DNA of 64,000 bases, from positions 8,976 to 72,975 of the forward strand of contig CAXTSM010000016.1 of the NCBI GenBank assembly GCA_964247025.1. The letters are read 5' to 3'. This DNA comes from an uncultured Chthoniobacterales bacterium. Its GTDB lineage: Bacteria > Verrucomicrobiota > Verrucomicrobiia > Chthoniobacterales > JAATET01. The notes beneath the pieces are model-generated. The model had not been told where the DNA came from. It did not search any database and saw only the letters and a list, made by a program, of their open reading frames with translations. Shown piece by piece: positions 1,631 through 49,819 of the stretch (position 1 is the stretch's first letter; the number at the start of each line of letters is the position of its first letter). The translations under genes and the position numbers were made by a program.

Positions 1631-3544
1631 ATGGCCGAGCCGACCCCCTGGGAAATCCAGCGCCCGAGCCCGAACACGATCGAGGCCCTCGGCGTGCGCC
1701 ACGCGCTGGAGTTTCTCCTCCGCAATGTCCTGCTCATTTTTCTCGGCCTCGCCGCCGGCATTGGCCTGGGCCTGGTCATCCAAAAAATCACGCCGACCGC
1801 CTTCCAGTCGAAGGGCAAGTTCGTCGTCGACGAGCTGCCCTTCAGCAAACAGGGCGACTCCGCCGGCACCGACGCCGAGACCGAGCGCCAGCTCGTGCAG
1901 ACGCTCATTCTCAGCATCGCCAGCCGGGACATGCAGGCCGCCGTCGCCGAGCGCCTCGGCATCGAGAAGGAACGCCTCGCCTTCGACGAGATCGACCCCC
2001 CGCTCAAGCTCACGAAGGCCGCGCCCCAGGCGAATATCGAGCTCACCGCCACGAAGGAAAGCCGCATCGGCGTCGTCAACGCGACCTCGCAATCGTCGGA
2101 ATTCGCCGCGCAGGTCGTCAATGCCATCCTCGACCAGCTCAAGCTCTACAACCAGATCGGCGGCCAGTTGAAACAGCTCCGCCTCGACCTGAACCTCGCC
2201 CGCTCGAAGGCCGACAGCATCCTCGCCCAATACCTCGCCGCGTCGGAAAAACGCATCACCCTCGAGCAACAGGCCGCCGAATTCTTCGAATACAAGAAGC
2301 GCAACCTGCCCGTCGAGTCGTTCACCGCGTTCTCCACCGACCCGACGCTCAACAATCTCAAGACCCAGCTCATCCTCGTGAAATCGGAATACGACCGGAT
2401 CGCCGCGACCGTCACCGCGGGCGGAGCCCTGGCCGGCAAGCGCTCCGAGGTCCAGGGCCTCGAGCGGCAGATCACGCAGCACGCGCTCGCGCTCTCCGGC
2501 GCCCTGGTCTCCGAGCTCGAGATCGTCCGCACGCGCGAGAACGACCTCCAGCGGGAGCTGGCCAAGACGCAGACCCAGATCCAGCAGATGAACGACGCCT
2601 CGGCCCGGCTCACCCAGAGTTACGGCGACCCCGTCGCCATGCGGAAGATCATTCAGGACAGCCCCGGCAGCGCCCAGGCGGTCAGCAACGTCGTCGTCAT
2701 CATCGACCGCGCGTCCCCCACGAAAAAACCCATTCGCCCCAAGCTCACGCTCAACCTCGCCCTCGGCATCCTCGTCGGCGGCGTGCTCGGGTTCGGCGCC
2801 GCCGCCATCCGCACCCTGCTCGACAACCGCCTCCGCACGCCCGAGCTCATCGAGCAGCGCACGGGCCAGGCCTGCCTCGCCATGCTGCCGCCGCTGCGAT
2901 CCGGGCGGATCAATCGCCGCGGCTCGGCCCGTTTGTCCACCCCGCTCGGCCTCAGCTTCCTCCGCAGCCACTTCCTCCGCACCGCGATGGATGCCGAGGG
3001 CCGGCACGTCATCGGCTTCACGCCCTCCCGCAAAGGCGGCGACGTCGCGCGGCTCGTCGCCGATCTCGCGGTGCTGTTGGCGAACGCCGAGCAGCGCACG
3101 CTCGTCATCGACCTCGACCGCAAGTCGCCCCGCATCGCCGCGATGCTCGGCGTGGCGAAGACGGACGGCCTCAACGAGTGGCTGGACTCCGGCGAGCCGC
3201 TCCGTGCCTGCGTCGGCGGCACCACGATCCGGGAGCTCGCCGTCCTGGGCTTCGGGCGGATCACCGCGGAACTCGACGACCAGCTCGCCGGCCGGCCGCT
3301 CGCGAAGGAACTCGCCGCCCTCCAGGAGGATTGGGACTTCATCCTGATCGCGTCGCCCTCGATCCGTTTCGACTGGACGCTGATGCTGGCGCTGCCCTCC
3401 GGCAGTCCCGTCGTGATCGCCGCGGACTACCGGAAATCCACCGTGCCGGACCTCGAGGCGACCGTGCAGCGCGCCCGCGGCTCCCATTGGTCGGTGGAAG
3501 GCGTCGTCCTGCAAAACTGCCCGCGCCGCGCCGCCGCCGCGTAA
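1631..3544 (+). CDS. polysaccharide chain-length determinant / BY-kinase-like protein (GumC/Wzc family), nucleotide-binding motifs degenerate
   Basis: N-terminal TM helix, long coiled-coil periplasmic region, and a second TM (LNLALGILVGGVLGFGAAAI). The C-terminal ParA/BY-kinase-like domain has an LVIDLDRKSP motif. Walker A and Walker B do not match the consensus (see finding). Confidence 0.7.
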   Translation: MAEPTPWEIQRPSPNTIEALGVRHALEFLLRNVLLIFLGLAAGIGLGLVIQKITPTAFQSKGKFVVDELPFSKQGDSAGTDAETERQLVQTLILSIASRDMQAAVAERLGIEKERLAFDEIDPPLKLTKAAPQANIELTATKESRIGVVNATSQSSEFAAQVVNAILDQLKLYNQIGGQLKQLRLDLNLARSKADSILAQYLAASEKRITLEQQAAEFFEYKKRNLPVESFTAFSTDPTLNNLKTQLILVKSEYDRIAATVTAGGALAGKRSEVQGLERQITQHALALSGALVSELEIVRTRENDLQRELAKTQTQIQQMNDASARLTQSYGDPVAMRKIIQDSPGSAQAVSNVVVIIDRASPTKKPIRPKLTLNLALGILVGGVLGFGAAAIRTLLDNRLRTPELIEQRTGQACLAMLPPLRSGRINRRGSARLSTPLGLSFLRSHFLRTAMDAEGRHVIGFTPSRKGGDVARLVADLAVLLANAEQRTLVIDLDRKSPRIAAMLGVAKTDGLNEWLDSGEPLRACVGGTTIRELAVLGFGRITAELDDQLAGRPLAKELAALQEDWDFILIASPSIRFDWTLMLALPSGSPVVIAADYRKSTVPDLEATVQRARGSHWSVEGVVLQNCPRRAAAA

Positions 3545-3548
3545 CGGC

Positions 3549-5015
3549 TCAAGCCGCCTTTGCGCCGCGATGGATCGCGCGCAGCTGCCACGCGGCGATC
3601 CCGCCGGAAACCGCCGCCGCTCCCACCCACAAAGCCAGCGAAGCGGACCGCCCCGCGACCGCCTGCAGGAGCGCCGCCGCGCCGAGCCCGGGCCCGAGGC
3701 CGGCCAGGGGGCGGGCATACAGCGCCGCGGGGGACGCCTGGCAAAGCCGCGCGATGCGGCCGAAGATCGGCGCCATCGCCACGATGCCCACGCTCCCGCC
3801 AACGAGCAGGCCCGGAAGCCCCGCCACGAAATATCCCGCCGTCGCCAGGCCAACGTCGAGGCCGGCTTCGCAGAGGTTGCCGATCGCCGCGGGCCGCACG
3901 GCCCCAAGACCCATCGAGGCATTCACGGCGATGCGGCTCACCGCGCCGGCCAGGCCGAAGAAAGCCATCGCGGCCCCCAGCCCCGCCACGATCTGGTGAT
4001 CGCCCGGCAGCCAGCGCCGCAGGAGTTGCTCGCCGAGCAACGCGAGCCCGATCGTGGCGTGCAGGCAGAAAACGCCGGCGTAGACCCACGTCTGCCGGAA
4101 GCGCGCGGCCCGCTGGGCGGCATCCGGGGCCGTCGCCAGCGAGGCAAGCGACGTCTCGCTCGCCGTCGCGCCGACGTTGCCGACGATCTCCGTGAGGCGC
4201 AGCAGGATGTAGAAAAGCCCCGCCTCGGCCGGCCCCGCGAGGGCGGAAACGAGGAACGTGAGCGCGTGCCCCTTGGTGATGAGCGAGACCGTCGTGAGGT
4301 AATACCAGACGCCGGCCCGAAGCGTGCCGAGGATGATCCGCGGATGGAACACGCCGCGCTCGCGCCACGGAAACAGCGCAAAAAGTCCCTTCCGCGCCGC
4401 CACGAAAAAATTCGGGACCATGGCGCAGGCCGCGTAAAGGACGATGGCCACGAGCACCGACGCGCCGAGCCACACGGCCAGGCCGCAGGCGGGGATCGCG
4501 GCGATCGCGCCCCCGGTATTCGCGGCCTTGAGGGTGGAGAGATTGCCCCGCGCCGCGAGGGGCTCAAGGCCGAGGAAGGTGGTCATCAGCACGCCGGTCA
4601 TCGCCACCGTCACCACGAGCACGAGCGCGCCGTTGCCCGGCAGGTGGAACCATTCCGTGAGCCGGCCCGTCGCCGCGAGCGCGGCCACGGCGGCGGTGGC
4701 GAGGCCGGCCACGAAGCCAAAGGTGACGAGGCCCTCGCCGAAAGCCCGCCGGAAGGCCGCGTCGTCTCCGCGCTTGAGCGCCTCGGCGAGCCGGATGCGG
4801 GTGAGCGCGCGCACGCCGCCGTCGAGCAGCGCCATCGAGACGAGGAGCGACGAGGCGAGGGCGAAAAGGCCGTATTGCTCCGCGCCCCAGCGGGCGAGCA
4901 TGAGCGGCGTGAGCAGGATGAGGAAGGCGGCCTTCGAGAGAAAGTTCGCGCTTTGCCAGACCTGGTTTCGCAGCAGCTCGCGGAAATGCGAGGAAGGGGC
5001 GGGCCGCTCGCTCAC
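3549..5015 (-). CDS. oligosaccharide/polysaccharide flippase (MOP/Wzx family)
   Basis: The last 488 codons of the 884-aa ORF are multi-TM. The N-terminus FRELLRNQVWQSANFLSKAAFLILLTPLMLARWGAEQYGLFALA is typical of Wzx-type flippases. The upstream ORF part is low-complexity overlap with the kinase gene. The only in-frame start before TM1 is GTG at 5015. Confidence 0.65.
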   Translation of the reverse strand: MSERPAPSSHFRELLRNQVWQSANFLSKAAFLILLTPLMLARWGAEQYGLFALASSLLVSMALLDGGVRALTRIRLAEALKRGDDAAFRRAFGEGLVTFGFVAGLATAAVAALAATGRLTEWFHLPGNGALVLVVTVAMTGVLMTTFLGLEPLAARGNLSTLKAANTGGAIAAIPACGLAVWLGASVLVAIVLYAACAMVPNFFVAARKGLFALFPWRERGVFHPRIILGTLRAGVWYYLTTVSLITKGHALTFLVSALAGPAEAGLFYILLRLTEIVGNVGATASETSLASLATAPDAAQRAARFRQTWVYAGVFCLHATIGLALLGEQLLRRWLPGDHQIVAGLGAAMAFFGLAGAVSRIAVNASMGLGAVRPAAIGNLCEAGLDVGLATAGYFVAGLPGLLVGGSVGIVAMAPIFGRIARLCQASPAALYARPLAGLGPGLGAAALLQAVAGRSASLALWVGAAAVSGGIAAWQLRAIHRGAKAA

Positions 5016-6740: not shown

Positions 6741-7472
6741 CTAGATGTTGTCGCCGAGGAAGGTGTGGATGCCGCACTCGGCCTTGTCGAATCCGGTCCA
6801 TCGACCCGCGCGTTCGGAGTCGTTCGCGCCGATCGGCCGGGTGCAGGTCGTGCAACCGATGCTGCGGTAACCGCGCGAAAGCAGGGCGTTCACCGGAAGG
6901 TCGCGCTCGCGCAGATAGGCGTGCACATTCTCGCGGCTCCACGTCGCCATCGGGTTCAGCTTGAGGATGTATCGGTCATGCAGGACGTCGAACTTGTAGA
7001 GCTCGGCGACCTGCGTGCGCTGGCGGGTGTCGGACTGCTGGCGGCGCAGGCCCGTGATCCAGACGTCGAGCGCCTTGAGTTTGTTTTGCAGCGGGATGAC
7101 CTTGCGCAGCGTGCAGCAGAGGTCGGGATAGCGGTTCCAGAGCTCGGGGCCGTGCTCGGCGGCCTGTTGCGCGAGATTTTGCTCCGGATGCAAAGACTCG
7201 ATCGTCACGCCGAGCCGGGCCTCCAGCCGGGCCTTGAGTTCGAGCGTCTCGGGAAAGAGCAGGTCGGTGTCGATGGTGAAGATCGGGAACCGGAAGCCGC
7301 TCTCATAGGCCGTGTGCATCACGACGATCCCCGCGCCCTGGAAGCTCGTGCCAATGGCCGCGCGTTCGCCGTAGGTTTCCCACGCCCAGCGCAGCACGTC
7401 GACGAGCGGGGCGGACTCGAATTCGTCCGCCTTGCGGTGGATCAGGTCGGGGTCGAATTTCTGCAGCGACAT
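6741..7472 (-). CDS. cysH: phosphoadenosine phosphosulfate / adenylyl-sulfate reductase (thioredoxin-dependent)
   Basis: PAPS_reduct fold motifs, a CC...CxxC pair (PDLCCTLRKV, SIGCTTCTRP) typical of Fe-S APS reductases, and a C-terminal ECGIH motif. Confidence 0.9.
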   Translation of the reverse strand: MSLQKFDPDLIHRKADEFESAPLVDVLRWAWETYGERAAIGTSFQGAGIVVMHTAYESGFRFPIFTIDTDLLFPETLELKARLEARLGVTIESLHPEQNLAQQAAEHGPELWNRYPDLCCTLRKVIPLQNKLKALDVWITGLRRQQSDTRQRTQVAELYKFDVLHDRYILKLNPMATWSRENVHAYLRERDLPVNALLSRGYRSIGCTTCTRPIGANDSERAGRWTGFDKAECGIHTFLGDNI

Positions 7473-7493
7473 GGGATTTTTCTCACGTGAAGG

Positions 7494-7536
7494 CGCGAGG
7501 CCGCGACGGAATGCTTCGGTTCTTCGCGGCCTCGCG
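7494..7536 (-). terminator. 13-bp perfect stem-loop downstream of tkt (possible terminator or mRNA stabiliser, no U-tract)
   Basis: CGCGAGGCCGCGA (7494-7506) and TCGCGGCCTCGCG (7524-7536) are exact reverse complements around a 17-nt loop. An outer GTGAAG/CTTCAC pair also flanks it. Confidence 0.4.
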
Positions 7537-7556
7537 GCTTCGCGCGGGCTTCACCC

Positions 7557-9539
7557 TTACAGCGAGTTCACGGCGGCGACAACGGCCTCGGGTGTCATAC
7601 CGAGCTCCTTCATCGCGATGGGGCCGGGGGCGCTGAGGCCGAAGCGGTCGATCGCGACGGCGTGGCCATCGAGGCCCACGAACTTGAACCACGGGAGGGA
7701 AATGCCCGCCTCGATGCTCACGCGCCGGCGGCAGCTCGCGGGCAGGACCTCCTCGCGGTAGGCGGCATCCTGGCGCGCGAACCGCTCGAAGCACGGCATC
7801 GACACGACGCGGACGCCGGCGCCGAGCTCCCCGGCGGCCTTGATCGCATGTTGCAGCTCGCTGCCGGTGGAGAGGAGGATCGTCTCGAGCGCGGCCGTTT
7901 CCTTGATCGCGATGTAGCCGCCCTTGAAGACGCCCTCGCGGCGGGTTGCCACGGGGATCTGCGAGAGCGTCGGCACGTTCTGGCGGCCGAGCACGAGCAT
8001 CGTGGGGCCGTTGGTCTTCTCGAAGGCCGCGGCGAACGCGCCGGCGGTTTCCTCGGGATCGGCGGGGCGAATGACGTCGAGGCCGGGAATCGCGCGCAGG
8101 GCGGCGACGGTTTCCACGGGCTCGTGGGTGGGGCCGTCCTCGCCGACGCCGACGGAATCGTGCGTGAAGATGTAGACGCAGGGGAGGTTCGAGAGCGCGG
8201 CGAGGCGGATGGAGGGGCGGCCGTAATCGCTGAAGACGAGGAACGTCGCGCCGCTGGGGCGAAAGATGCCGTCGTAGGCGTAGCCGTTCAGGATGCCGCA
8301 CATGGCGTGCTCGCGGATGCCGAAGTGAATGTTGCGGCCTTCGCGGTTCTGCCGGTCGAAATTACCGGCGCCCTCGATGTAGTTGAGCGTGGAGCCGTGG
8401 AGGTCCGCGCTGCCGCTCACGAGTGAGGGCATGGCCTTCGCGATGGGTTGGAGGACGACGGAGCCGGCCTTGCGGGTGGCGATGTCTTCGTCCGGCTTGA
8501 ACTCGGGGATGAGGCTCAACAAATCCGGCACGCGCCCGGCCTTCGCGTCGGCGAGCTCGGCGGCGAGGTCGGCATTGCCGGCTTCCCAGGCGATGAAGGT
8601 TTTCCGCCACTCGGCGTGGGCCGCCTTGAGCGTCTCCTTGTGCGCGGCGAAGTATTCACGCGTCTTCGGGTCGACGTAGAATTTTTCCCCGGGCAGGCCG
8701 AGTCCCTTGCGGGCGGCGTCGGAGAATTTCACGCCGGCCTCGCCGTGGGCCTTGTTCGTGCCCTCGACCTCGGGGATGCCTTTGCCGATCATCGTCTTCG
8801 CGACGATGAACTGGGGCTTGCCGCTCTTCGCAGCCTTGGCGTTGGCGAAGGTCCGGGCGACCTCCGCGAGGTCGTTGCCGTCGATCTCATAAACGTCCCA
8901 CCCGTAGGCCCGGTAGCGCGCCGCGGTGTCCTCGCTCTGCGAGACCGGGGCCATGGCGTCGAGGGTGACGTTGTTGCAATCGTAAAAGAGGATGAGGTTA
9001 TCGAGCCCGACATGCGCGGCGAGGGCCGAGGCCTCGGAGGAGATGCCCTCCTGCAGGCAGCCGTCGCCCGCGAGGCAGACGACGTGGTGGTCGAAGATCG
9101 TGTGCTCGGCGGTATTGTATTTCGCCTCCGCCATCTTGCCGGACATGGCGTAGCCGACCGCATTGGACACACCCTGTCCGAGGGGGCCCGTGGTCGCCTC
9201 GACGCCGGGCGTCTCGAAGTGCTCGGGATGGCCCGGCGTCTTGCTGTGGAGCTGGCGGAAGGCTTTGAGGTCGTCGAGGCTCAGATCGTAGCCGGAGAGG
9301 TGGAGCCAGCTGTAGAGGAACATGCTGCCGTGGCCGGCGGAGAGGACGAAGCGGTCGCGATTGATCCAATCCTTTTCGTCGGGGTTGTGCAGGAGGGCGG
9401 ACCCGTAGAGCACGGCGCCGATCTCGGCCGCGCCGAGCGGGAGGCCGAGGTGGCCGGACTTGCTGGCGGTCACGGCGTCGATGGCGAGGCCGCGGGCGTC
9501 GCGGCAGGCGAGCGAAAGGGAGTCGAGGTCGAGGCTCAT
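7557..9539 (-). CDS. tkt: transketolase
   Basis: [45 protein letters not shown]..., a TPP-binding GDGCLQEG motif, and 660 aa typical length. The ORF-track N-terminal extension (to 9845) is non-homologous low-complexity sequence. Confidence 0.95.
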
Positions 9540-31189: not shown

Positions 31190-31294
31190 TCCGCAGATTT
31201 CGCAGGTTTACGCCGACTTGGGAAAAGGCATTTTGCAGAAACGCTCCAATCGAGACTCCTGTATTTATCGGCGAAAGTCTGCGAAATCTGCGGA
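31190..31294. promoter_or_regulatory. 16-bp perfect inverted repeat bracketing a divergent intergenic region
   Basis: TCCGCAGATTTCGCAG (31190-31205) is the exact reverse complement of CTGCGAAATCTGCGGA (31279-31294). Each arm ends 4-5 nt from one of the two divergent start codons (31185 minus, 31300 plus). Confidence 0.85.
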
Positions 31295-35906: not shown

Positions 35907-37415
<1,509 letters not shown>

Positions 37416-38291: not shown

Positions 38292-38380
38292 GTCCGCAGA
38301 TTTCACGGGTGGGCGCCGATCTGATCCGGGAGAATCGAAGCCTTTTCATCAATCTGCGAAAATCTGCTTAATCTGCGGAT
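38292..38380 (-). other. intercistronic hairpin (atpA-atpG spacer) built on AATCTGC repeats
   Basis: TCCGCAGATT (38293-38302) is the exact complement of AATCTGCGGA (38370-38379). AATCTGC occurs three times in tandem (38351, 38361, 38370). Confidence 0.6.
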
Positions 38381-38391
38381 CGACGGGATTT

Positions 38392-43317: not shown

Positions 43318-43417
43318 AGGCGGTTTTGAATCTGGAAAACAGGAAGCCAGGAACGGCAGGGCCTCTTGGATTTTCCTGGCTTCCTGGTTTCCAGATTCCC
43401 GAGTCCTTCCCGCTTCC

Positions 43418-45256
43418 ATGTGCGGAATAGCCGGGTTCGTGGGGCGCGGGGAACGCGCCGACCTCGCGCGCATGACCGGCGCCATCGCCCACCGCGGTCC
43501 GGATGCGGACGGTCATTGGATCGAGGGATCGACCGGCGTCCACCTCGGGCACCGGCGGCTTTCCATCGTCGATCTCGCCGGCGGCGCGCAGCCGATGTGG
43601 ACCGCGGACGACGCGATCGGCGTCGTCTTCAACGGCGAAATCTACAACCACGCCGAGCTCCGCGAGCAGCTCGAGGCCCGCGGCTGCGCCTTCCGGACCG
43701 ACCACTCCGACACCGAGGTCCTGCTCCACGCCTACCGCGAATGGGGCGACGACTTCGTCTCCCGCCTCGACGGCATGTGGGCCTTCGCCATTTACGACCG
43801 CCCGCATCGACGCGTCTTCATCAGCCGCGACCGCTTCGGCAAAAAGCCGCTCTACTGGTTCCACGAAGCCGGCGTCTTCGCGTTCGGCTCCGAGCTCACC
43901 GCGCTCCTCGCCCACCCCGCCTGCCCTCGCTCCGTCTCGCCGGCCGCGCTCCGCAAATATTTCGCCTACGCGCTCATCCCCGCGCCGCACGCGATCCTCG
44001 ACCGCGTCTGGAAGCTGCCCGCCGGCCACAACCTCGTCTTCGACCTCCGCGCAGCGTCGCCGCGCGTCGTGACATACTGGGACTTCGTGCTCGCGCCCGC
44101 CGAGCCGGCGAAATCCGACGACGCGCTCGCCGACGAGTTGCTCGCCACGATCGATCGCGCCGTCCAGCGCCGGCTCATGGCCGACGTGCCGCTCGGCATC
44201 TTTCTCAGCGGCGGCGTCGACTCCTCGCTCGTCGCCGCGCTCGCCGCGCGCCACGTGGATCCCGGCGCGCTCCGCACCTTCAGCATCGGCTTCACCGAGG
44301 CGTCGTTCGACGAGCTTGCCTGGGCCAACCAGGTCGCCGGCCTCCTCGGCACGAACCATCGCACGGAAGTCCTCGACCTCGACCGCGCGCTCGAAGTCCT
44401 GCCCGATATTTTTGCCCGACTCGACGAGCCGCAGGGCGACGGCTCGCTGCTCCCGACATGGCTGCTCAGCCGCTTCACGCGGCGCCACGTCACGGTCGCG
44501 CTCGGCGGCGACGGCGGCGACGAGCTCTTCGCCGGCTACGATCCCTTTCTCGCGCTGCGTAAGGCCCAGGCCTACGCGAGACTCGTGCCCCGCCCGATGC
44601 ACCTCGCGATCCGCCTGCTCGCCCAGCGCCTGCCGGTCTCGCCCGCGAACCTCAGCCTCGACTTCAAGATCAAGCGCACGCTGCGCGGCCTCGGCCACCC
44701 CGCCGCCCGGTGGAATCCAGCCTGGCTCGGCGCGCTCGAGCCGGCCGAGATCGCGGATTTTCTCGGCGGCGACGGCGAGCCCGAGGAGCTCTACCGCGAG
44801 GCGATCGAGCTGTGGGATTCCTGCCCGCAGCGCGACGTCGTCGACCGCACGCTGCAGTTCTACACGAAGATCTACCTGCCCGACGGCATCCTCGCGAAGG
44901 TCGACCGCGCGAGCATGATGCACGGCCTCGAGGTCCGCGCCCCCCTGCTCGATCTCGAGGTCGCCGACTTCGCCCGCCGCCTGCCGCACCATTACAAGCT
45001 GCGCGGCCCCACGACCAAATATCTGCTCAAGCTCGCCGCCTCGCGCGTGCTGCCCGCGGACGTCGTCCATCGCAGGAAAAAAGGCTTCGGCTCGCCTCTC
45101 GGCCCGTGGTTTCGCGGCGGCCGCCTGGCGCCATCCTCGCCCGATGCCTTCACGCGGGGCCGCCTCGCCGCGCATCGCGCCGGCCGCGGCGACGAGCGGC
45201 TGTTCCTGTGGTGTCAACTCGTCTTCGAAGAATGGAAAAAGCGGCGCCTGCCATGA
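43418..45256 (+). CDS. asnB: asparagine synthase (glutamine-hydrolysing) family amidotransferase
   Basis: N-terminal MCGIAG (Ntn Cys) and the PP-loop FLSGGVDSS. 612 aa. Confidence 0.92.
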   Translation: MCGIAGFVGRGERADLARMTGAIAHRGPDADGHWIEGSTGVHLGHRRLSIVDLAGGAQPMWTADDAIGVVFNGEIYNHAELREQLEARGCAFRTDHSDTEVLLHAYREWGDDFVSRLDGMWAFAIYDRPHRRVFISRDRFGKKPLYWFHEAGVFAFGSELTALLAHPACPRSVSPAALRKYFAYALIPAPHAILDRVWKLPAGHNLVFDLRAASPRVVTYWDFVLAPAEPAKSDDALADELLATIDRAVQRRLMADVPLGIFLSGGVDSSLVAALAARHVDPGALRTFSIGFTEASFDELAWANQVAGLLGTNHRTEVLDLDRALEVLPDIFARLDEPQGDGSLLPTWLLSRFTRRHVTVALGGDGGDELFAGYDPFLALRKAQAYARLVPRPMHLAIRLLAQRLPVSPANLSLDFKIKRTLRGLGHPAARWNPAWLGALEPAEIADFLGGDGEPEELYREAIELWDSCPQRDVVDRTLQFYTKIYLPDGILAKVDRASMMHGLEVRAPLLDLEVADFARRLPHHYKLRGPTTKYLLKLAASRVLPADVVHRRKKGFGSPLGPWFRGGRLAPSSPDAFTRGRLAAHRAGRGDERLFLWCQLVFEEWKKRRLP

Positions 45257-46449
45257 GCGAGCCGCTCCGCATCCTCTGCCTCAACTACGAATACCCGCCC
45301 GTCGGCGGCGGCGGCGGCCGCGTCGCGCATCGCATCAACGCCGAGCTCGCGCGCCGCGGCCATGCCGTGCGCGTGCAAACCGCCGGGCTGCGCCATTTGC
45401 CGGCGCGCGAGACGGTCGACGGCGTGGAAATCTTCCGGGCCGAGTCGTTCCGCAGGAAGGAGGACACCTGCACCGTGCCCGAGATGGCGCTCTATCTCGC
45501 CACGAGCTTCCGGCCCGCCCTCCGCCTCGTGCGCGAATGGCGCCCGCACGTCATTCACGCGCATTTCGCCGTGCCTACCGGCGCGCTGGCGTGGGCCGTC
45601 TCGCGGCTCACCGGCACGCCCTACGTGCTCACCGCGCATCTCGGCGACGTGCCCGGCGGCGTGCCCGAGCAGACCGCCGGCCTCTTCCGGTTCGTCCAGC
45701 CATTCACCCGCCCGATCTGGCGGCGCGCGGCCGCGGTCACCGCCGTCAGCACGTTCGTCGCCGACCTCGCGGAGCGCGCCTACCACCGCCGCCCGGAAGT
45801 CGTGCTGAACGGCATCCCGAGCGCCCCCAATGAAGATTCCGAGCGCGGGAAAAAGGGAAAAGGGGAGGGACCCGAAACTTTCCCCTTTTCCCCTTTTCCC
45901 GCGCTCGAAACTCCCCCGCGCCTGCTCATGGTCGGCCGGCTGAGCGTGCAAAAGAACCCGTTGCTCGCGATCCGCGCGCTCGCGCTCGTTCGCGACCGGC
46001 CGTGGGAACTCCGCGTCATCGGCGACGGCCCGCTCCGCGCGGAAATGGAGCGCGAAGTCCGCGCGAACGATCTCGCGGCGCGCATCCGGTTCCTCGGCTG
46101 GCTCGACGCGCCCGCCGTCGGCCGCGCCATGTCCGACGCTGACGCGTTGCTGATTTCCTCGCGCAGCGAAGGGCTCCCGATGGCGGCGATCGAGGCGCTC
46201 TCGCACGGGCTCGCCATCGTCTCGACCCGCATCGGCGGCGTGGCCGACATCGTGGAGGACGGCGCGAACGGCCTTTTGGCCGAACCGACCGCGGAATCCT
46301 TCGCCGCCGCGCTGCGCAAAATCCTCACCGATCCCCGGGCGCTCCCCGCCATGCGCCGGGCCTCCGCCGCGCGCGCTTCCCGCTTCGATCTCCCCGTCTC
46401 CGTCGACGCCTACGAAGCGATCCTCAGGCGGCACTCACGCGCCGCGTGA
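45253..46449 (+). CDS. family 4 (GT-B) glycosyltransferase
   Basis: LRILCLNYEYPPVGGGGGRVA..., and a C-terminal E-x7-E region (SSRSEGLPMAAIEALSHGL). The ATG overlaps the asnB stop (ATGA). Confidence 0.88.
   Translation: MSEPLRILCLNYEYPPVGGGGGRVAHRINAELARRGHAVRVQTAGLRHLPARETVDGVEIFRAESFRRKEDTCTVPEMALYLATSFRPALRLVREWRPHVIHAHFAVPTGALAWAVSRLTGTPYVLTAHLGDVPGGVPEQTAGLFRFVQPFTRPIWRRAAAVTAVSTFVADLAERAYHRRPEVVLNGIPSAPNEDSERGKKGKGEGPETFPFSPFPALETPPRLLMVGRLSVQKNPLLAIRALALVRDRPWELRVIGDGPLRAEMEREVRANDLAARIRFLGWLDAPAVGRAMSDADALLISSRSEGLPMAAIEALSHGLAIVSTRIGGVADIVEDGANGLLAEPTAESFAAALRKILTDPRALPAMRRASAARASRFDLPVSVDAYEAILRRHSRAA
45841..45906. repeat. 66-nt near-perfect palindrome inside the GT4 coding sequence
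   Basis: GAGCGCGGGAAAAAGGGAAAAGGGGA...TCCCCTTTTCCCCTTTTCCCGCGCTC. 25 of the 26 outermost arm positions are Watson-Crick complementary. It is in frame and encodes ERGKKGKGEGPETFPFSPFPAL. Confidence 0.9.
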
Positions 46450-49723: not shown

Positions 49724-49819
49724 AACCACCGATCTCACGGATCACCCGGATCCATTCCCGAACGGCTCCCACCCTCATCGCCTCCTTCCCCATCCGTGCC
49801 ATCCGTGAAATCCGTGGTT
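49724..49819 (+). promoter_or_regulatory. 29-nt imperfect inverted repeat made of three 9-mers, upstream of the sigma-54 activator gene
   Basis: The 3' arm is CATCCGTGC CATCCGTGA AATCCGTGGTT (49791-49819). The 5' arm (49724-49752) is its reverse complement at 23/29 positions. The spacer is 38 nt, and the 3' arm ends 25 nt before the ATG at 49845. Confidence 0.75.

Follow-up and report, generated by a model that had tools for sequence, protein, structure and literature searches.

In Rickettsia, palindromic repeats of ~100–150 bp, the Rickettsia palindromic elements (RPEs), are inserted in frame in genes (Ogata et al. 2000, per PMC10969869), and they form Rickettsia-specific sequence families, each of which encodes a conserved peptide (PMC10969869). 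Intragenic GTAG/CGTC-tagged REPs are most numerous in Opitutus terrae, a verrucomicrobium (Di Nocera et al. 2013, PMC3733652). The intragenic REP inserts encode 20–30 aa and have been proposed to be neutral in flexible linkers or loops, and the repeats occur as dimers of short REPs with stems of 5–13 bp (PMC3733652). In Xanthomonas, where the unit is GGGAATC, convergent arrays of G-rich heptamers form inverted repeats, and in Nostoc the heptamer is GGGGAYT (Rehm et al. 2015, PMC4692102). Such arrays are mostly intergenic, are under-represented in coding DNA, number ~180 per genome and lack both a GC clamp and a fixed loop (PMC4692102). MITEs such as Correia/NEMIS, ERIC and RUP (PMC10969869) are short and non-autonomous, carry inverted repeats and can form in-frame fusions. 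The kind of event reported here is already known from Rickettsia and Verrucomicrobia, and since it was described in Verrucomicrobia in 2013 its general interest is modest. What is new is the element itself, which offers a clean case outside Rickettsia of a protein lengthened by a probably selfish hairpin repeat, with both comparative data and metagenome contigs at hand.

The 64-kb stretch of DNA analyzed here (the window) comes from a lichen-associated member of the Verrucomicrobia. Within it, the element lies in an intact glycosyltransferase gene (Table 1), the terminal gene of a GT2-asnB-GT4 operon that is syntenic in every relative examined, and the start of the GT4 gene overlaps the stop of the asnB-like gene (ATGA). 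The protein contains two Pfam GT4 domains (Glyco_transf_4, residues 19–189, and Glycos_transf_1, residues 219–368), and its catalytic motif E306-x7-E314 is, like many other residues, invariant in an alignment with 25 homologs. The closest homologs, most of them 372–388 aa in length, belong to the Chthoniobacterales and Terrimicrobiaceae (Verrucomicrobiota). With the predicted model, which has a GT-B fold, Foldseek returns the GT4 GT-B enzymes BshA and MshA as the closest structures (TM 0.75–0.8), and a PDB sequence search leads to the same BshA/MshA-type GT4 families. The five AlphaFold models have a mean pLDDT of 88, and the dip in confidence is limited to residues 191–220, where block means are 54, 43 and 65, with values <50 at residues 203–213 and ~90 elsewhere in the protein.

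Table 1. Coordinates of the GT4 gene and of the parts of the palindromic element within the window (X5, lichen-crust metagenome)
Feature	Position	Strand	Description
Host gene	45253..46449	+	intact GT4 (GT-B) glycosyltransferase, 398 aa; ATG at 45253, stop at 46449
Left arm	45837..45866	+	purine-rich; TTCCGAGCGCGGGAAAAAGGGAAAAGGGGA = GC clamp, then ~2.5 units of GGGGAAAA
Loop	45867..45880	+	GGGACCCGAAACTT; CGAAACT part common to one dispersed X5 copy
Right arm	45881..45910	+	pyrimidine-rich; TCCCCTTTTCCCCTTTTCCCGCGCTCGAAA; 0–1 differences from four other X5 contigs
Predicted G-quadruplex motif	45847..45869	+ (sense)	GGGAAAAAGGGAAAAGGGGAGGG; canonical; regular-expression scan
Net gain, 60 nt (20 codons)	45844..45903	+	one possible parse, between GAG and CTC

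The sequence-only reading had placed a palindrome at 45841–45906, and it is present there as quoted; a repeat search extends it slightly, to a 74-nt element (45837–45910) in which two 30-nt arms are separated by a 14-nt loop. The arms pair at 28 of 30 positions (93% complementary), giving a stem of 27–30 bp. As had been proposed, the stretch 45841–45906 amounts to 22 codons in frame with the ORF that begins at 45253, and it reads ERGKKGKGEGPETFPFSPFPAL. The description of the insert as purine-rich, then pyrimidine-rich and lower in GC than the gene also holds, as local GC is 0.57–0.63 at the insert and 0.70–0.82 in the rest of the GT4 gene (~0.72 for the gene), so that its composition is foreign relative to its host gene. 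At the RNA level, an 86-nt stretch folds as a single hairpin at −55.4 kcal/mol, whereas 200 dinucleotide shuffles of it average −28.4 ± 3.5 (z = −7.73), none of the 200 being as stable. In a hairpin scan of the window, the element ranks first, narrowly above a hairpin at 43328–43398. A 20-nt arm word occurs at two sites in the 64-kb window, where none is expected, and both sites lie in the palindrome; this search found no second copy of the element elsewhere in the window. Among known structures, an intrinsic terminator was rejected because no T-run follows the stem, as was parS or another known operator, which the sequence does not resemble. An Rfam search with the hairpin gave only far-sub-threshold matches to miRNA precursors, which are generic hairpins.

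The arms follow a simple design, with a GC clamp, TTCGAGCGCGGG, and then about three GGGGAAAA units, of which the right arm is the complement. All six frames are open across the whole 74 nt, since arms that are purely purine or purely pyrimidine cannot form a stop codon in any frame on either strand. Codons drawn from the purine arm specify Gly, Lys, Glu and Arg, whereas Phe, Pro, Ser and Leu come from the pyrimidine arm. Each of the two groups would favor disorder, which fits the loop of low confidence in the model. Such arms are therefore well suited to life inside a gene, being free of stops and encoding disorder-promoting Gly/Lys and Pro/Phe stretches. The sense strand also carries one of six predicted canonical G-quadruplex motifs in the window, recognized by sequence pattern; its GGG tracts begin at 45847, 45855, 45862 and 45867, spaced by 8, 7 and 5 nt, and the complement lies in the right arm.

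Comparison with orthologs shows that the host gene has acquired this segment. All 25 aligned homologs, which are 58–78% identical to the GT4 protein, lack exactly 20 residues at this position, in agreement with the earlier estimate that the linker is about 20 residues longer than usual. The gap is flanked by NGI-x-LGPR and PPRLLMVGRL, which confirms the placement, already recognized from the letters, between NGIP and LLMVGRL in the linker between the two Rossmann halves. None of the distant homologs has a homologous linker. In a relative represented by a contig in one lichen metagenome (X2, see below), a stretch of 85 nt corresponds to 145 nt of the window, exactly 60 nt less, and its linker is canonical (...PRPRIEPHAP followed directly by PRLL). 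These alignments, at the level of sequence, show a lineage-specific gain of 20 codons. The parse given in Table 1 is based on the 20-residue gap, the 85 nt of the X2 relative, and DNA comparison with two further relatives (L119 and L121). The gene has gained 60 nt net, but the element itself measures 72–74 nt or more, so part of the original linker must have been lost or overwritten. No direct repeats that could represent a target-site duplication flank the borders 45837/45910, 45840/45907 or 45844/45903, and no candidate transposase for the element was found. A search of 5.8 billion proteins with the linker peptide returned the query itself as its sole match. In the model, the insert falls between the last element of the N-terminal domain and the strand formed by residues 223–227 of the C-terminal domain, a predicted loop position at the surface between the two Rossmann domains that is compatible with the GT-B fold. 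For annotation, the insertion accounts for an odd low-complexity loop in a conserved GT4 enzyme and warns against reading that loop as a functional motif.

Short-read assemblers are known to fail at palindromes, so that the structure might be an artefact of assembly or sequencing, for instance a fold-back chimera; one of the unrelated G/A hairpins found in our scans (L062) does lie at a contig end. Public sequencing runs were searched with the region. In the lichen metagenome X2, a 164-nt contig matches 45695–45858 with no differences, and in a second lichen metagenome (X1) a 378-nt contig matches 45887–46264 with four differences overall and none in 45887–45960. Because these contigs enter the arms, both arms are seen in the context of the gene outside the assembly, though these runs may be the source sample. 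The third run, X5, is a lichen-crust metagenome from another study. Its 1275-nt contig aligns with 45434–46273 with 115 substitutions and just two 1-nt gaps, and this ortholog, ~86% identical to the window (~14% diverged), has the insert too, with its position and phase unchanged. The arms are thus reproduced in the same flanks by contigs from three runs and two studies, a diverged ortholog holds the whole structure in frame, and the site is interior to a long contig, all of which makes an artefact extremely improbable. The site was not covered in runs X3, X4, X6 and X10–X14, and a run search that used the palindrome alone as query listed nothing. A second X5 relative, also ~86% identical, is represented by a 2842-nt contig that covers 45424–45818 of the window and ends ~20 nt beyond 45818, before the palindrome; this end is consistent with the assembly graph of that strain, too, having broken at a repeated arm.

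The same metagenome provides copies of the arm outside the GT4 gene. Four further X5 contigs (1022, 328, 71 and 410 nt; depth 3–6.5), known from match tables, match the right arm with 0–1 differences. The matches start at 45873–45880 and end at 45903–45910 (25–32 nt), after which the flanks are unrelated to the GT4 gene. Two of these contigs match on both strands, and each must therefore hold both arms in inverted orientation; their loops are ~11 nt, including the CGAAACT of the window, and 37 nt. CGAAACT is contained in the first X5 record, which matches 45873–45904, and three of the four copies run through the non-repetitive clamp CCCGCGCTCGAA(A). These data indicate a small dispersed repeat family with the putative consensus TTCGAGCGCGGG-AAAAGGGGAAAAGGGGAA-loop-complement, its dispersed copies being those seen in the relative's metagenome. 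The low-coverage contigs of the same strain in X1 and X2 did not show further copies. The heptanucleotide ATGAAGA stands just outside the clamp in the left flank of the window copy (45826–45842, AATGAAGATTCCGAGCGCGGG) and again in the reverse-complemented flank of the 1022-nt X5 copy (GGGGATGAAGAAAGGCGCGGG); the border of the family may lie further out, or the sharing may be due to chance.

The simplicity of the unit raises the question of whether the palindrome arose locally, by expansion of a GGGGAAAA array in the linker followed by inverted copying through template switching during replication, in which case the X5 matches would be convergent arrays that have the simple unit in common but are otherwise unrelated. 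The unit is indeed of low complexity: an exact-word scan of genome contigs with the arm 20-mer found >118 unrelated low-complexity loci among the matches listed. Convergent (GGGGAAAA)n arrays have moreover formed long hairpins independently in unrelated genomes, namely at L022 1228–1286 (a Chromatiales MAG), L062 43–103 (a Pseudoxanthomonas MAG) and L046 6818–7021 (a Pyrinomonadaceae MAG), and a single local event would agree with the failure to find a second copy in the window or in the X1 and X2 contigs. However, the hairpins at these three loci are made of G/A runs without the clamp or the loop, whereas the non-repetitive clamp is common to the window and the X5 copies, one of which also has the loop segment CGAAACT. 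A scan of 241 million metagenome contigs with CCTTTTCCCYTTTTCCCGCG, a 20-nt arm pattern composed of repeat units and the CGCG start of the clamp, identified 29 loci, none of which continues with CTCGAA. On this evidence, we regard a single local origin as improbable. Motif checks on all 151 scanned genome and metagenome loci revealed chance matches and no family member. Among the hairpins in unrelated genomes, that of L022 is nested within a REP-like GTAGGAGCGCC... pair, and that of L046 consists of an array of ~20 units opposite a short inverted array.

A different question is whether the hairpin, whatever its source, is kept for a function in cis, a reading with which an origin as a mobile repeat would be compatible. 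The sequence-only reading had offered a regulatory mRNA hairpin as its alternative, for which the data speak neither way. Candidate functions include a site of RNase III cleavage or ribosome pausing, through which GT4 output would be tuned or the two domains helped to fold one after the other, a switch between hairpin and G-quadruplex, and an array of 8-nt protein-binding sites placed in a tolerant loop. The very stable stem (−55.4 kcal/mol) and its location exactly between the two domains are in keeping with such a role, and a stem of ~28 bp should be long enough for RNase III to accept it as double-stranded RNA. Neighboring hairpins with this architecture are conserved in relatives. The sense strand carries the canonical G-quadruplex motif, and related G-rich arrays form G-quadruplexes in vitro (PMC4692102).

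The X5 ortholog, whose insert we rebuilt from its listed differences to the window, bears on this question in both directions. Its insert peptide is RASDGEVPRGKRGKGEGSEILPFSPLPARKNPPR, as compared with SAPNEDSERGKKGKGEGPETFPFSPFPALETPPR in the window, and the changes between the two comprise ~13 non-synonymous and 3 synonymous ones, which gives no sign of constraint on the peptide. The palindromic DNA is thus retained while the peptide drifts, and the stem, despite three A·C mismatches (three or four pairs broken), still folds at −49.7 kcal/mol. In favor of a maintained hairpin, both members of one stem pair have been substituted (45842 A>C, 45905 T>G), and another pair is repaired by 45854 A>G opposite C45893. 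Position 45854 is the one place where the left arm of the window departs from the family consensus, which was inferred from the X5 copies (A in place of G). Overall, the window deviates from consensus at 1 of 54 arm positions and the X5 ortholog at 8 of 54 (two-sided binomial p ~0.04), an asymmetry that could reflect constraint, gene conversion or re-insertion, but one that amounts to nine differences and was measured against copies found through their likeness to the window. Against a role in cis, all other orthologs appear to work without the hairpin, and three or four stem pairs are broken in the sole other ortholog that has the insert. We consider retention for a cis function unlikely.

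Taken together, the window and a relative that is ~14% diverged have the insert in common, with identical position and phase, and its arms recur amid unrelated sequence in the metagenome of that relative; both points are shown by the contig comparisons. We think it probable that the segment represents one copy of a small palindromic repeat without genes of its own, which entered the GT4 gene in the manner of an RPE or an intragenic REP and is carried as a neutral in-frame passenger, neutrality being the most likely status of the element. The sequence-only reading had suggested an in-frame palindromic insertion comparable to those of Rickettsia, and it gains support from the absence of the segment in orthologs and from the arm copies in X5. 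Under the passenger reading, a copy would have landed in the DNA of the hinge between the Rossmann domains in an ancestor that this bacterium and its lichen-crust relative shared recently. Three properties would have allowed it to persist: the net gain is divisible by three, the homopurine and homopyrimidine arms remain open in any frame, and the peptide, rich first in Gly, Lys, Glu and Arg and then in Pro, Phe and Ser, would be disordered at the protein surface. The mRNA would contain the ~28-bp stem, and this could incidentally delay ribosomes or be a target of RNase III.

Set beside the systems described above, the element resembles RPEs in being a hairpin repeat in frame in a functional gene of housekeeping type, with its peptide at a tolerant surface position and with what may be a family of several copies; the gene is intact, and the 25 aligned homologs are free of the repeat. 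It differs from RPEs in its drifting peptide, its simple GGGGAAAA arms, its verrucomicrobial host and the handful of copies seen, and at 74 nt it is below their length range. It is probably not a sequence member of the RPE families (RPE-1 to RPE-10), and it does not belong to the GTAG/CGTC REP families. With the latter it shares the setting, a small palindromic repeat inside a verrucomicrobial gene, with an insert on the 20–30-aa scale in a flexible linker. However, the tags GTAG, CTAC, CGTC and GACG are absent from the 74-nt element, its stem is 27–30 bp long as compared with 5–13 bp (PMC3733652), and it forms a single long hairpin rather than a dimer of short ones. The likeness to the heptamer arrays lies in the tandem G-rich units of 7–8 nt that face an inverted array as convergent inverted repeats, with at least four G-tracts, four of which fit the G-quadruplex motif. 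Unlike those arrays, the element has the clamp, and one copy of it lies in frame inside a gene. It shares with MITEs its small size, the lack of genes of its own, the inverted repeats and the capacity for in-frame fusion, but it shows no target-site duplication and consists of a single hairpin from end to end, not of a core enclosed by terminal inverted repeats.

Further hairpins with arms of short tandem units occupy spacers of the window at 31190–31294, 37337–37415, 38295–38382, 43328–43398 and 49724–49819, and tandem-unit hairpins are found at orthologous spacers of relatives as well. The hairpin at 43328–43398, the second strongest of the window, lies in the GT2-asnB spacer. We considered whether it is the same element as that in the GT4 gene, and this was rejected, since its units are different and its orthologs occur in relatives without the GT4 insert. 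These orthologs (L121 1338–1411 and L154 3790–3858) share with it three CWGGAA hexamer cores per arm at 8-nt spacing; the cores are invariant, and the 2-nt linkers are variable and not always compensated. In L119 and L152, the same spacer is just 7–17 nt long and has no hairpin. The atpG-atpD spacer hairpin at 37337–37415 has arms of ACAGAATT units, and the orthologous hairpin of an activated-sludge relative (L152 2225–2315) has three ACAGGATT units in each arm, which means that the two arms have changed in concert. The hairpins at 31190–31294 and 38295–38382 have a common terminus and the unit TCCGCAGATTT, and they appear to be one array-armed family, distinct from the GT4 element.

With arms of 7–9-nt tandem units, and with several such hairpins filling spacers in this genome and its relatives, the array-armed hairpins may be a class that is actively maintained as a cis-acting site, for example as a protein-binding array or as a hot spot of re-insertion or gene conversion. 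The homopurine/homopyrimidine design may then be what would let such a site live within coding DNA. Maintenance is suggested by the window copy lying closer to consensus than its ortholog and by the neighboring hairpins keeping their hexamer cores; we nevertheless hold it doubtful, and improbable as an account of the class. Relatives also carry insertions of other kinds in the same operon. In L121, asnB and GT4 are separated by a PhdYeFM/PIN toxin-antitoxin pair (3295–4004), and in L153 an 838-nt insert between GT2 and asnB (7324–8160) contains an unannotated ORF of 278 aa whose product looks secreted.
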